A DNA stretch of 64,000 nucleotides from Candidatus Eiseniibacteriota bacterium (GTDB taxonomy: Bacteria; Eisenbacteria; RBG-16-71-46; DASYSL01): the NCBI GenBank assembly GCA_036003365.1, contig DASYSL010000086.1, forward strand, positions 1,258 through 65,257, written 5' to 3'. The notes beneath the pieces are model-generated. The model was not told where the DNA came from, made no database searches, and worked only from the letters and a program-made list of their open reading frames with translations. This document shows, one piece after another, positions 53,912-60,344 of this stretch. How positions within the stretch are numbered: position 1 is the first letter of the stretch; each line of letters opens with the position of its first letter. Made by a program: the position numbers and the translations under genes.

Positions 53912-54319
53912 CTAGGCGCGCGCGACGTCCGTACGCGATGTCTGGCCGAGAATGGCGTTGATGCGCTCGACCAGCTTGCGCGGACTGAAGGGCTTGGTGA
54001 TGTAGTCGTCGGCGCCGACCTCGAAGCCCACCTTCTGGTCGACGTTGCGACCCTTGGCCGAGAGCAGGATCACCGGAATGTCCTTGGTCTCCGGGTTGCT
54101 CTTGAGCGCCTTGCAGGTCTCGTAGCCGTCGAGCTTCGGCATCATGATGTCGAGCACGATCAGATCCGGCTTGTCCTGCGCGACCTTGGCCAACGCCTGC
54201 TCTCCGTCGAGAGCGGTCATCACCTCGTATCCCTCGATGCCCAGACTGAAATCGAGGATGTGGACGATGTAGATCTCGTCGTCCACCACGAGAATCTTCC
54301 CTTTGGCCACTTCGTTCAC
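53912..54319 (-). CDS. Single-domain response regulator (CheY-like receiver).
   Basis: 'KILVVDDE', 'DLIVLDIMMPKLDG' (phospho-Asp), 'LLSAKG' and 'GADDYITKPF'. Confidence 0.9.
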   Translation of the reverse strand: MNEVAKGKILVVDDEIYIVHILDFSLGIEGYEVMTALDGEQALAKVAQDKPDLIVLDIMMPKLDGYETCKALKSNPETKDIPVILLSAKGRNVDQKVGFEVGADDYITKPFSPRKLVERINAILGQTSRTDVARA

Positions 54320-54358
54320 CTCCTCGCACGGCCGCGACCAACGGAGTCGCGGCGCGTC

Positions 54359-57019: not shown

Positions 57020-59298
57020 CAGGCGGCCTTTCGCGGGCGGGCGGCGTTCTCCTCGTCCAGCTCTCTGGCGAGCGCCGACTGCACGCGCGGATCGAGGCGC
57101 GTGCCGCTCAGGCGCTCCATTTCCTCGAGCGCGAAGGCGGCGGGCAGCGCCGGGCGGTGGGCGCTGCCGCGCGTGAGATCGCGCAGGGCATCGACGGCGG
57201 CGAGGATGCGGGCGCCGAGCGGGATGGCGTTGCCGCTCAGGCCGCGCGGATAACCACTGCCATCCCAGCGCTCGGCGCGGGCGAGCAGGATGTCGCGCGC
57301 CGTACCGAGCACGCGCGTGCGCCGGCCATTGCTGCTCGGCTTCTCGTTCAGCTCCCCGATTTCCATCGCCTCAGCGTCGTCGCCGCCCGCGAGCCGCGAC
57401 AGGGAGCGCGCTTCGGCCGGGCTCGCGCCCAGGCGGCGCGCCAGCGCGTAGGCCACGGCACCCGGCGGGCGCTGGCCGATGGCCAGGTCCTGGCGCAAGT
57501 GGATGGAGGCGCGGAGCGCGGCCATGGTCTCGGCCGGCGACTCCGGCGACTCCGGGAAGGCGAGCGAGCGGTCGACGGTCGAGCACACGCGATCGACCAG
57601 CGTCGACATGAGGGCGAGATCCGGTTGCCCGAACGCCTCGCGCGAGCGCTTGTTGTTCACGTTGATGACGCCGATCGAGCGCCCGCTCACGATGAGCGGC
57701 ACGCAGATGAGCGACTTGGTCGAGTACTGGGGGTGGTTGGGGCGCCGGAAGCGCGGATCGGTCTCGATGTCGTTCACGAGCACCGGCGCGGCCTGCGCCA
57801 AGGCCTTGCCGCCGACGCCGCCGCGGAAGCCGACGCGGCGCTTGAGCGCCGTCTCGTCCAAGCCCAGGGCGGCGGCCATCTTGAGATCGCCGCGCTCGGG
57901 ATCGACCAGCATGAGCGAGACGATCTGCGCTTCCATCGCCTCGGAGACCAAGGCCACGGCCTCGTCGAGGAGGCGCAGGCAGTCGCGGCGCTCCCACAGC
58001 TCGGCCGCCACGCGGCGCGATTCCTCGGGCGCGCGCTGCACGCGCGGCAAGATGACCGTGAACACGCTGCCGCCGCCGGGGCGCGCTTTGACGCCGATCT
58101 TTCCGCCGTGCAGCTCGGTGATGTTGCGCGCAATGGCGAGACCGAGGCCGGTGCCGGGCACGGCGTGACGGCCGTCCTGCTCGAAGCGGTAGAAGCGCTC
58201 GAAGACGCGCTCCGACTGCTCCTCGGGGATGCCCGGGCCGCGATCCATCACGTCGAGCTGCCAGCGCTCCTCGTCGCCCGAGACCACGATCTCGACCGTG
58301 GTCCGCTCGGGCGAGAACTTGATGGCGTTGCTCACCAGGTTGAGTCCGAGCTGCTTCAGGAGATCGAGGTCGCCCTCGACCGAGCCGAAGTTCTCGGGCA
58401 CGTGGCCCTGCACCTCGACGCTCCGGCGCTTGCCTTCGGGCGCCATGGTGAGGAGCACGTCGTCCACCAGCTCATGGGGCAGGAGCGTCGTGAGATGGAA
58501 CGACTTCTGCCCCGATTCGAGACGCGAGTAGTCGAGCGCGTTGGTGAGCAGGCGCCCCAGGCGGTCGCACTCCTCGTTGATGATCTCGAGGAACGGCCGG
58601 CGCGACTCCCATTCTTCTCCGGGCGTGTCGATGAGCGTTTCGGCGTAGGCCTTGATGCAGGTGAGCGGCGTGCGCATCTCGTGCGCCACCACCGAGAGCA
58701 TCTGGCCGAGGAGCGCTTCCCCTTCCTCGGCGCGCGCCTCGAGATGTTGCGCCGCCAGCTCGCGCTCGGCAAGGGTCCGGTCCGAGCGCGAACGCTCGAG
58801 GCCGAGCGCCAGCGCGTCGGCCAGCAGATGGATGGCGAGCTTGTCGGAAGTGGAGAAAGCGCGCGCCAGGCCGAACGTGGCCACCCAGACCCCGTCCGTC
58901 GCACTGCGCGCGCGCAAAGGAAAACAGAAGAAGGCACCGGCCTTCTTGCCCCCGAGTGCCTGGTCGAGCGGCGTCGCCGCGTCGGCAGCGCTGGCGAACA
59001 GCGGCTCCTCACGGTGGAGTGCGTACTCGAGCGCGCCGCCGGGGCTCGGCAGGAAGGCTTCGCCGGGCCCGCCACGCTTGGCGTCCCACGGGCGTAGTGC
59101 ACCGGTGCGCTCGTCGATGAGGAAGAGCTGGCTGTCCTTGGCGCCGAGTGCCGCGCGCGCGCCCGCGCTCACGGTCTCGACCAGAGCGCCGACGTCCGAA
59201 GACGTGCGCAGAAGGAAGGTCGCCTCGGCCAGGCTCGCGAGGACCGAGTCGGCCGGCTTGCCGTTCGCCGACGGGCGGGCCGCGCGGCGGGCGGGCAT
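57019..59298 (-). CDS. Paralogous hybrid sensor: GAF - histidine kinase - GAF - degenerate HD-GYP-like domain (about 759 aa). The ATG overlaps the upstream TGA (TGATG).
   Basis: H-box 'VAHEMRTPLTCIKAY', 'DRGPGI' and 'GTGLGLAI'. C-terminal 'ARAERWDGSGYPRGL' keeps GYP but has lost the His residues of HD and HHE. Confidence 0.85.
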   Translation of the reverse strand: MPARRAARPSANGKPADSVLASLAEATFLLRTSSDVGALVETVSAGARAALGAKDSQLFLIDERTGALRPWDAKRGGPGEAFLPSPGGALEYALHREEPLFASAADAATPLDQALGGKKAGAFFCFPLRARSATDGVWVATFGLARAFSTSDKLAIHLLADALALGLERSRSDRTLAERELAAQHLEARAEEGEALLGQMLSVVAHEMRTPLTCIKAYAETLIDTPGEEWESRRPFLEIINEECDRLGRLLTNALDYSRLESGQKSFHLTTLLPHELVDDVLLTMAPEGKRRSVEVQGHVPENFGSVEGDLDLLKQLGLNLVSNAIKFSPERTTVEIVVSGDEERWQLDVMDRGPGIPEEQSERVFERFYRFEQDGRHAVPGTGLGLAIARNITELHGGKIGVKARPGGGSVFTVILPRVQRAPEESRRVAAELWERRDCLRLLDEAVALVSEAMEAQIVSLMLVDPERGDLKMAAALGLDETALKRRVGFRGGVGGKALAQAAPVLVNDIETDPRFRRPNHPQYSTKSLICVPLIVSGRSIGVINVNNKRSREAFGQPDLALMSTLVDRVCSTVDRSLAFPESPESPAETMAALRASIHLRQDLAIGQRPPGAVAYALARRLGASPAEARSLSRLAGGDDAEAMEIGELNEKPSSNGRRTRVLGTARDILLARAERWDGSGYPRGLSGNAIPLGARILAAVDALRDLTRGSAHRPALPAAFALEEMERLSGTRLDPRVQSALARELDEENAARPRKAA

Positions 59299-60344
59299 CA
59301 GGCCGCCGCTTGCTGGGGCGACGAGGCAGCGTTGCGGCGGCGCCGCTCGGAGACGACCACGCTTCCTTGCATCCCCTTGCCGAGCGTCTTGAGCTCGGCG
59401 AGTGCGTCGTCGAGCTGCGCGAGGTGCATGCCTTCGATGTCGGTGTTCGCGGCCAGCGCGATGGTCACGCTCATGAGCGGGAAATTCTCGAAGTCGTGGC
59501 GGCGGTTGCGCACGCGCACGAAACCCTGCTTGCGGTCCTCTTCCTCGTAGAGGAGGGGCAGCTCCTTTTCGAGCGTCTCCTTGAGGCGCTCGGCCAGGGC
59601 TTCCCCCGCCTCCGGCGAGCACAGAACCACGAAGTCGTCGCCGCCGATGTGGCCGACGAAGTTGTCGGCGTGTCCGTCTTCGTCCACGACCTTGGTGAGG
59701 ATCTCGGCCACGCGCGAGATGGCGACGTCGCCGCGCGCGAAGCCATAGCGGTCGTTGTAGGCCTTGAAGTAGTCGATGTCGAGCACGAGTTGCGAGAATG
59801 GCTTGTCGTCGTCGAGCCGGTGCTGGCGCTCGGCGAGAATGCTGACGCCGCCGGGCAGGCCGGTGAGCGGGTTCACCGCCTTCTGCGTCTTCGCCCACTC
59901 GAGGTGGTTGTGCACGCGCGTCACCAGCTCCCGCTTGTTCCACGGCTTGACCATGTAGTCGTTGGCGCCGCCCTGCAGGCCCTCGAGCTTGTCCTCCTCG
60001 GTGCCCTTGGCGGTGAGCAAGATCACCGGGATGTGGCGCGTGCGGTAGTGCGAGCGCAGCCGCTTGCAGACTTCGTAGCCGTCCATGCCGGGCATCATGA
60101 CGTCGAGCAGGACGACGTCCGGAAGCTCAGCGCGGGCCGTCTCCAGCGCTTCCGGACCATCGCCCGCCTGGAGCACGGTGTAACCCTCGCGCGAGAACGT
60201 CATCTCGAGCGCGTCACGCAGGCTTTTCTCGTCGTCGACGATGAGGACTGTCCGGCTCGGCTTGATCTCGCTCACAGTTGCCCCCGCGGCTCGGCTCACG
60301 CGCCCGGGCGAAGAGGTCCCGTGCGACGGAGTCTTCCACGGCAA
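59298..60344 (-). CDS. Response regulator with REC + GGDEF-family domain (motif reads GGDDF). True start probably a GTG about 45-70 nt inside the track ORF.
   Basis: 'VLIVDDE', 'DVVLLDVMMPGMDG', 'ILLTAKG', then 'GHIGGDDFVVL' and 'NDRYGFARGD'. Confidence 0.8.
   Translation of the reverse strand: MPWKTPSHGTSSPGRVSRAAGATVSEIKPSRTVLIVDDEKSLRDALEMTFSREGYTVLQAGDGPEALETARAELPDVVLLDVMMPGMDGYEVCKRLRSHYRTRHIPVILLTAKGTEEDKLEGLQGGANDYMVKPWNKRELVTRVHNHLEWAKTQKAVNPLTGLPGGVSILAERQHRLDDDKPFSQLVLDIDYFKAYNDRYGFARGDVAISRVAEILTKVVDEDGHADNFVGHIGGDDFVVLCSPEAGEALAERLKETLEKELPLLYEEEDRKQGFVRVRNRRHDFENFPLMSVTIALAANTDIEGMHLAQLDDALAELKTLGKGMQGSVVVSERRRRNAASSPQQAAA

Follow-up and report, generated by a model that had tools for sequence, protein, structure and literature searches.

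The window analysed here is a 64,000-nucleotide stretch of Candidatus Eisenbacteria DNA (contig DASYSL010000086.1), and its minus strand encodes, side by side, two paralogous histidine kinases, HK1 and HK2, that end in HD-GYP domains. These tails probably lack catalytic activity, each has lost a different part of its active site, and both are maintained by purifying selection. Positions 53912-60344 hold four co-directional open reading frames (ORFs): RRGG, a response regulator with a receiver and a GGDEF-like domain (REC-GGDDF); HK2; HK1; and REC, a single-domain receiver. They are followed by priA. The ORFs agree with the gene order given in a preliminary description made from the sequence alone, and both of the TGATG overlaps that it listed are present. 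As judged from sequence, HK1 and HK2 are each a soluble GAF-sensor HisKA kinase fused to a GAF-HD-GYP module of the PmGH type.

HisKA, HATPase_c, GAF and HD_5 were detected with Pfam in both HK1 and HK2, which are 33% identical across ~670 residues. The elements that mark a HisKA-family sensor histidine kinase (the H-box His and the N, G1, F and G2 boxes) were found in both proteins, and the kinase boxes are all present in HK1 (H262, DTGIGI, FERFY, GTGLGL) and in HK2 (H206, DRGPGI, FERFY, GTGLGL). The H-box helices are closely alike (HELRTPLTSIRAYTESL in HK1; HEMRTPLTCIKAYAETL in HK2). No membrane segment was predicted in HK1 or HK2, and a reading of the kinases as membrane sensors was discarded: 19-residue hydropathy never exceeded 1.7, and its maxima fell within the GAF cores.

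The HD_5 profile was matched in its C-terminal part alone (72-170 of 170 in HK1 and 100-170 of 170 in HK2; Pfam, 2e-23 and 2e-17). In a sequence search of the PDB both tails matched PA4781, V-cGAP3, DvhD and PmGH. AlphaFold2 models of the tails, built on 42-sequence alignments, were confident (predicted local distance difference test scores of 84.8 and 85.6), and their top Foldseek matches in the PDB were all HD-GYP proteins (DvhD, PA4781, PmGH, V-cGAP3 and Bd1817; entries 9rbz, 4r8z, 4mcw, 5z7c and 3tm8, at E 1e-7 to 1e-4). For the HK1 tail the closest structure was that of DvhD. In these models both tails keep the HD-GYP fold. Pfam, AlphaFold2 and Foldseek thus bear out the statement of the preliminary description that both kinases end in an HD-GYP-like domain, and its counter-case, C-termini of another fold, was not what the models gave.

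Catalytic positions were placed by aligning the tails with canonical orthologues, one of which was anchored on PmGH, PA4781 and DvhD; the list of metal ligands was taken from Bellini et al. and from Galperin & Chou, and is given in PmGH numbering (H189, H221, D222, H250, H276, H277 and D305). HK1 retains five of the seven ligands (D713, H772, H796, H797 and D825), which leaves the second metal site complete, plus D825. The primary HD site has neither of its histidines, H189 being replaced by A682 and H221-D222 by A712-D713 (in 'LLADLAL'). The remaining equivalents in HK1 are H772 for H250, H796-H797-E798 for H276-H277-E278, and D825 for D305. In HK2 one of the seven ligands is left (D702, for D305): R610 stands for H189, the H221-D222 region is deleted, no His is found for H250, and R674-A675-E676 occupies the place of H276-H277-E278. 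The GYP loop comprises N801 to Y805-P806 in HK1 (HHEWVNGGGYP) and D679 to Y683-P684 in HK2 (RAERWDGSGYP). Accordingly, the family motif HHExh(D/N)GxGYP (Galperin & Chou, preprint) was matched in HK1 and not in HK2. The PmGH segment R314-x-Y316-K317 corresponds to G835-V-G837-R838 in HK1 and S712-A-H714-R715 in HK2. The RxY[K/R] substrate motif was found in neither protein (GVGR and SAHR, against RPYR or RAHR in canonical orthologues), and the equivalents of R314 and Y316 are gone from both.

These alignments were read against ~230 orthologues, mostly with the full motif set, and the degeneracy is therefore not an accident of alignment. The preliminary description had taken both tails to be degenerate in different ways, and had named a full set of metal ligands as the finding that would overturn this; the ligands proved incomplete in both. 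Its account of HK2 (DGSGYP, RAE for HHE, HD His absent) was confirmed. For HK1, the retention of HHE was upheld; H693-E694 was rejected as the HD motif, as the alignment puts HD at A712-D713, 19 residues further downstream, and NGGGYP is a canonical variant of the motif and not a deviation. HK1 also carries a 48-residue acidic insertion, found only in the HK1 clade of the window, which follows the HD position, ahead of the H250 helix, and is predicted to form two helices, with partly low confidence. This insertion occupies the place of the PmGH L7/8 'claw' that covers the nucleotide site.

In PmGH each of the substitutions H189A, H221A, H250A, H276A and H277A abolishes activity, and R314A and K317A barely affect it (PMC4159591). 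Since single-ligand alanine mutants of PmGH are inactive, neither tail should hydrolyse cyclic diguanosine monophosphate (c-di-GMP); the incomplete metal sites and this mutagenesis agree with the earlier proposal of non-hydrolytic tails.

The motif census of ~230 tails gave HD, H250, HHE, GYP, D305 and RxY/H-R as the majority, distant state in both kinases. Because most orthologues have intact HD, HHE, GYP and RxYR, it is the lineage of the window that carries eroded copies. The equivalent of H189 is always absent in the HK1 lineage (Pro), and all Eisenbacteria HK1-type proteins lack it. Within the clade of the window, HK1 proteins have A, Q, M or Y before the Asp of the HD position, with one member (P0008) retaining HD, and HK2 proteins lack the HD region and show RAE, RSE or RHE and G(H/Y/Q/W)P; the window HK2 has GYP where a 98%-identical homologue has GHP. 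In a sister clade HK1 is eroded further (RHE..DGTGTP, with D305 and RxxK lost) and HK2 retains RxYR. The canonical clade has separate partial losses of its own, in an 'RD' subclade of HK2 and in the L002 copy of HK1 (RD/E). A neighbour-joining tree of the kinase parts alone, approximate and midpoint-rooted, agrees with stepwise, repeated erosion.

Where an outgroup locus has two kinases, YD stands in place of HD in the one proximal to REC, which keeps HHE, GYP and RxY/W-R, whereas the other kinase has HD. The YD state was seen at the HK1-position kinase of loci L007, L011, L015, L016, L018 and L020, and is reminiscent of the inactive YN-GYP protein PA2572. Given the outgroup YD and the missing H189 equivalent in Eisenbacteria HK1, a non-canonical tail on the HK1-position kinase is likely to be ancient. 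The combination of one 'sensor-like' and one 'enzyme-like' tail looks like an old design in these sequences, because the REC-proximal outgroup kinase is YD and the other HD. What appears special to the lineage of the window is that the 'enzyme-like' HK2 tail has collapsed as well.

Mean pairwise identity within the clade of the window was 0.62-0.70 for the C-terminal (GYP) half of the tail, 0.45-0.54 for its N-terminal half and ~0.75 for HATPase. Ratios of nonsynonymous to synonymous substitution rates (dN/dS) were calculated by the Nei-Gojobori method against three relatives, at L083 (full operon), L084 (HK1, 93% identical) and L085 (HK2, 98% identical). Values were 0.10-0.30 for the tail halves, 0.04-0.22 for the kinase cores and 0.11-0.27 for whole proteins; the eroded tails are maintained by purifying selection. 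Invariant in canonical and eroded tails alike are E278, the two Gly and the Pro of the GYP loop, the IP.GAR columns and the Arg equivalent to K317. The histidines, the GYP tyrosine and R314 are not invariant.

For each kinase the search listed more than 100 proteins with the same Pfam architecture, and the named sources of the kinase orthologues were almost always Candidatus Eisenbacteria. Comparison of contigs showed the order REC-GGDEF, HK2-type, HK1-type, REC, priA to be retained in relatives whose kinases are 40-80% identical, frequently with 4-nucleotide gene overlaps. The RRGG alignment was used for a pattern scan of 185,579 species genomes, and the window proteins were then searched for by tblastn at 80 loci; the module was found at 17 of these, including genomes labelled Latescibacteria and Krumholzibacteria. 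The operon, with priA, was thus recovered across Eisenbacteria and neighbouring candidate phyla by the synteny comparison that the preliminary description had proposed, and its conservation throughout Candidatus Eisenbacteria is close to certain. The 'unusual fusion architecture' claimed there is therefore uncharacterised but not rare. No description of this kinase-HD-GYP fusion, and no paper on Eisenbacteria and c-di-GMP, was found in literature searches.

The modules carry one, two or three kinase-HD-GYP genes, and none at one locus. A single such gene is seen among the variants at L004, L006, L009, L014, L017 and L021; the Eisenbacteria locus L012 is a kinase-free RRGG-REC-priA; and L011 and L016 have an extra kinase core without HD-GYP directly after RRGG. 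At L084 (3375-5436) two opposite-strand genes without a Pfam match follow REC and replace priA, so that linkage to priA is not absolute even inside the clade.

The receiver residues of RRGG are complete (DD37-38, D81, T111 and K133). In its second domain GGDDF stands in place of the active-site motif [G/A/S]G[D/E]E[F/Y]. An alignment of 25 diverse RRGG orthologues showed GH(I/V)GGDDF to be invariant, together with DxD, ND and GD (Mg/guanine) and with ELK..GK at the place of the phosphate Lys/Arg. We take RRGG columns to be those of PleD D327, N335 and D344, with PDB alignments as a further guide. No RxxD I-site was found five residues before the motif, where the sequence is H-A-D-N. The REC-GGDDF family comprises at least 596 species in the genome pattern scan, from many phyla that include Omnitrophota, Actinomycetota (with Micromonospora), Clostridia, Chloroflexota, Elusimicrobia and Planctomycetes, and the exact GGDDF motif occurs at 78 of 82 loci. 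Being invariant in the family, GGDDF is a signature under selection and not a lesion. The preliminary description was right that the regulator carries this motif, which it called non-canonical. The breadth of the family speaks against reading it as an inactivating change, and so does the GGDDF domain of GSU1937, which is active in an engineered fusion and was reported as the first active example (PMC8835794). Cyclase activity of RRGG is likely.

Outside the Eisenbacteria group the REC-GGDDF gene usually lies directly after a plain histidine kinase (L022-L082). At ten Actinomycetota loci (L026, L037, L042, L045, L056, L057, L060, L062, L080 and L082) a priA-like match of 27-31% identity was found ~4-8 kb upstream of REC-GGDDF. 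The regulator is therefore linked to priA in two very distant groups; this may have a functional cause or come from a housekeeping neighbourhood that has been conserved. Assignment of RRGG to the PleD family was considered, since this was its top NCBIfam match (NF007135), and rejected: the score was 168 bits against a cut-off of 474, and the family is REC-REC-GGDEF whereas RRGG has one receiver. No paper on the REC-GGDDF family was found in the literature.

The single receiver is also complete in its receiver residues (DD13-14, D57, S87 and K109). Across Eisenbacteria its identity is 85-88%, against 40-50% for the kinases, and its dN/dS was 0.03-0.07. Its best PDB match was PleD Rec1 (E 1e-37), with DivK at 6e-16. 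These values suggest that REC is a hub with a highly constrained partner.

The features of the locus are listed in Table 1. The listed ORF of RRGG (348 residues) is open to a TTG at 60344; orthologues begin at the GTG at 60275 ('VSEIKPSR'), and because their N-termini begin there this GTG is probably the start and the TTG ORF too long. A TPR gene follows priA on the same strand. The upstream neighbour (60545-63004, minus strand) encodes a protein of 819 residues that contains eight FG-GAP repeats and ends in a FlgD_ig domain. In relatives this position is occupied by ATP synthase genes and then by cutA and tsaD, which indicates that the upstream flank is rearranged in the window. A scan of the whole window gave no Rfam match at gathering score for c-di-GMP riboswitches or other RNAs, and a promoter and terminator scan of 51400-60800 gave nothing informative within or 5' of the operon.

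Table 1. Features of the kinase operon and its downstream neighbour; coordinates are those of the window.
Feature	Coordinates	Strand	Basis
RRGG, REC-GGDDF response regulator	59298..60275	-	Pfam Response_reg 2.4e-32, GGDEF 1.7e-14; N-terminus aligns with orthologues
RRGG receiver domain; phospho-acceptor Asp in 'LLDVMMP' (60090-60110)	59913..60248	-	Pfam
RRGG GGDEF-like domain	59355..59846	-	Orthologue alignment; PDB alignments to WspR and other diguanylate cyclases
'DIDYFKAYND..GD' in RRGG GGDEF-like domain	59727-59783	-	
'GHIGGDDF' in RRGG GGDEF-like domain	59631-59654	-	
'ELKTLGKG' in RRGG GGDEF-like domain	59373-59396	-	
TGATG, RRGG stop overlaps HK2 start, A shared	59296..59300	-	Sequence
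HK2, 759 residues, GAF-HisKA-HATPase_c-GAF-degenerate HD-GYP, predicted soluble	57019..59298	-	Pfam
HK2 predicted pseudo-HD-GYP domain, residues 573-745, HD helix region deleted	57064..57582	-	Alignment, predicted structure
TGATG, HK2 stop overlaps HK1 start, A shared	57017..57021	-	Sequence
HK1, 886 residues, coiled N-terminus-GAF-HisKA-HATPase_c-GAF-degenerate HD-GYP, predicted soluble	54359..57019	-	Pfam
HK1 predicted pseudo-HD-GYP domain, residues 654-861	54437..55060	-	Alignment, predicted structure
HK1 acidic insertion, residues 720-767	54719..54862	-	Alignment; modelled
REC, single-domain receiver, 135 residues	53912..54319	-	Pfam 6.3e-31; 39 nucleotides 3' of HK1 stop
priA, primosomal helicase, conserved downstream neighbour of the module	51673..53769	-	Pfam; synteny

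We tentatively favour a reading in which the tails are non-catalytic regulatory modules, that of HK1 being a sensing or feedback input and that of HK2 a structural or docking remnant. The two paralogous kinases would act on both co-encoded receivers in a branched circuit whose logic would be that of DivJ/PleC acting on DivK/PleD, as the very similar H-box helices and the coupling of the four genes suggest. Phosphorylation of its receiver would turn on the GGDDF cyclase domain of RRGG. The ancestral kinases would each also have borne a c-di-GMP phosphodiesterase, and one protein would therefore have governed both synthesis and breakdown of the messenger. In this lineage hydrolysis would have been lost in both tails, which would have been kept as non-catalytic regulatory modules. 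The HK1 tail may have been without H189, H221 or both since before the phyla split, with HHE, GYP and one complete metal site remaining; it would most likely be the input to its kinase, binding c-di-GMP or the cyclase itself. The HK2 tail would be a more recently collapsed enzyme retained as a structural, dimerisation or docking element. An extended form of this scheme, which we put forward as speculation and think quite unlikely in full, is a self-contained second-messenger switch beside priA: the GGDDF regulator would make c-di-GMP or a related nucleotide, and the pseudo-HD-GYP tails would sense either the product or the cyclase and toggle the kinases between kinase and phosphatase modes.

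Several points weigh against the favoured reading. Most of the DvhD and PmGH contacts to c-di-GMP are replaced in the tails, in which the GYP Tyr and the Arg equivalent to K317 remain, and the usual RVGR of the HK1 clade is GVGR in the window; as R314A and K317A barely affect PmGH, this evidence from contact residues cuts only weakly either way. The pairing of kinases with receivers is drawn from co-operonic position and similar H-box helices. With five of seven ligands HK1 might keep weak activity, and some RpfG proteins without a key His were reported active. RRGG has His where diguanylate cyclases usually carry Arg before GG, and the activity of GGDDF is documented for one engineered fusion only (PMC8835794).

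The preliminary description proposed a kinase pair regulated by c-di-GMP binding to inactivated phosphodiesterase domains; in such a model both tails would be c-di-GMP receptors of the DvhD type, through which the messenger, produced by the GGDDF regulator of the operon, would set kinase activity. DvhD, with HD changed to SQ and HH to MN, binds c-di-GMP without hydrolysing it, and binding shifts the dimer geometry and moves the dimer stalk (PMC13090378); besides the structural match of DvhD to the HK1 tail, a cyclase-type gene in the same operon and the GYP Tyr present in both window kinases speak for such receptors. DvhD residues were numbered by an offset search, in which residue = chain index + 490 fitted 11 of 11 named residues. 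Its c-di-GMP contacts Y621, R650, Y652, E668 and M646 correspond to Y805, G835, G837, L853 and L831 in HK1 and to Y683, S712, H714, S731 and L708 in HK2, and of the eleven named residues those that survive in the window proteins are the GYP Tyr and one hydrophobic position. Of the two features of a receptor of this kind, loss of metal ligands with the fold kept was found, but conserved c-di-GMP contacts were not. R650, Y652 and E668 have become G, G and L or S, H and S; HK2 is without the entire HD helix region, and close homologues of it, one of them 98% identical, show H, V or Q in place of the GYP Tyr; and in HK1 the 48-residue insertion lies where the site-covering claw should be. As R314A and K317A hardly affect PmGH, the loss of contact residues makes a sensing model less probable, and no more than that. 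Regulation by c-di-GMP binding as originally stated, for both tails, is thus unlikely, and nucleotide sensing is plausible for the HK1 tail only. It is doubtful, though arguable by analogy, that neither tail binds nucleotide and that both dock and inhibit the REC-GGDDF partner or mediate hetero-association of HK1 and HK2 through the conserved surface of the GYP loop. Lysobacter RpfG binds and inhibits unphosphorylated WspR (REC-GGDEF) independently of its phosphodiesterase activity, and the GYP motif is reportedly crucial to RpfG::GGDEF complexes and not to catalysis, according to work cited in PMC4159591, the GYP loop being the surface reported to interact. Moreover, the genes are translationally coupled, and the invariant columns of the family are the scaffold of the GYP loop and not ligand-contacting side chains. 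The GYP Tyr is, however, variable among HK2 relatives, and part of the Xanthomonas RpfG literature was retracted.

Weak phosphodiesterase activity of HK1 through the second metal site (D713, H772, H796 and H797) and D825, HK2 alone being dead, would fit the ligands, HHE and GYP that HK1 retains, the HD of P0008 and the reports on RpfG proteins cited above. We consider it very unlikely, as HK1 lacks both H189 and H221, either of which is essential in PmGH (PMC4159591), and the YN-GYP protein PA2572 is inactive. A reading of the tails as remnants of phosphodiesterase domains, without function and in the course of being deleted, would account for the progressive loss of catalytic and substrate residues and for the deleted HD region of HK2. 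It is hardly credible: the dN/dS of the tails lies in the same range as that of the kinase cores and shows purifying selection, on which ground decaying relics were rejected; their C-terminal halves are 62-70% identical within the clade; their predicted folds are confident; and truncated or frameshifted copies were not seen among close relatives. Non-catalytic regulatory modules, with a sensing or feedback role for the HK1 tail and a structural or docking role for that of HK2, therefore remain the reading that we tentatively favour.

A dead HD-GYP domain acting as a c-di-GMP receptor was demonstrated structurally only in 2026, for DvhD (PMC13090378). In the operon, orthologues of the same two kinases form a natural series from intact through partly eroded (YD, QD, AD and RD) to collapsed tails, all under purifying selection. 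The invariant motif of the large and apparently unstudied REC-GGDDF family bears on which GGDEF sequences are to be scored as active. If the switch beside priA were real, it would be a bistable circuit like DivJ/PleC/DivK/PleD built from different parts, and the first case in which a dead phosphodiesterase domain gates histidine kinases. The operon has no evident medical or ecological consequence.

Among known systems, DvhD of Desulfovibrio vulgaris (PDB 9RBZ and 9RC0; Font et al. 2026, PMC13090378) is likewise a non-hydrolysing regulatory module in which HD-GYP ligands are replaced. It differs in that it is no kinase but a PAS-HD-GYP receptor in the membrane, part of a Lap-like adhesin system, and in that it keeps RxYR and the other c-di-GMP contacts. 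GSU1937 of Geobacter sulfurreducens (Hypr; PMC8835794) shares the GGDDF variant with RRGG, but is a Hypr enzyme of the membrane that carries Ser at the specificity position and makes cyclic GMP-AMP, whereas RRGG has Asp (guanine) and a receiver input. PmGH (Persephonella marina, GAF-HD-GYP, PDB 4MCW) has the architecture and fold of the C-terminal half of both kinases; it has all eight ligands and is active, as a tri-iron phosphodiesterase, whereas the window modules are, on alignment, catalytically incomplete and stand behind a complete histidine kinase. In the RpfG-WspR pair of Lysobacter enzymogenes and in RpfG::GGDEF of Xanthomonas an HD-GYP protein acts on a REC-GGDEF protein by binding, independently of hydrolysis; RpfG itself is an enzymatically active response regulator (REC-HD-GYP), and the likeness of the window tails to it is one of analogy. 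Degenerate HD-GYP motifs with retained regulatory roles are found in PA2572 (YN-GYP), HnoD (SE/QLE), ECA3548 (HT/ANE) and Bd1817, none of which is fused to a histidine kinase or part of a paralogous pair in one operon. In the DivJ/PleC-DivK/PleD system of Caulobacter one single-domain receiver and one receiver-cyclase regulator serve both kinases. The likeness to the window circuit is in logic only: RRGG has one receiver and not two, the window kinases are predicted to be soluble GAF proteins with HD-GYP tails, and the tie to the cell cycle here is the adjacency of priA alone. Degenerate c-di-GMP domains and c-di-GMP-responsive kinases are thus already known; what is new is that a fusion of a kinase to GAF-HD-GYP is conserved as a pair of paralogues and has eroded by degrees under selection, and that the GGDDF family is so broad.

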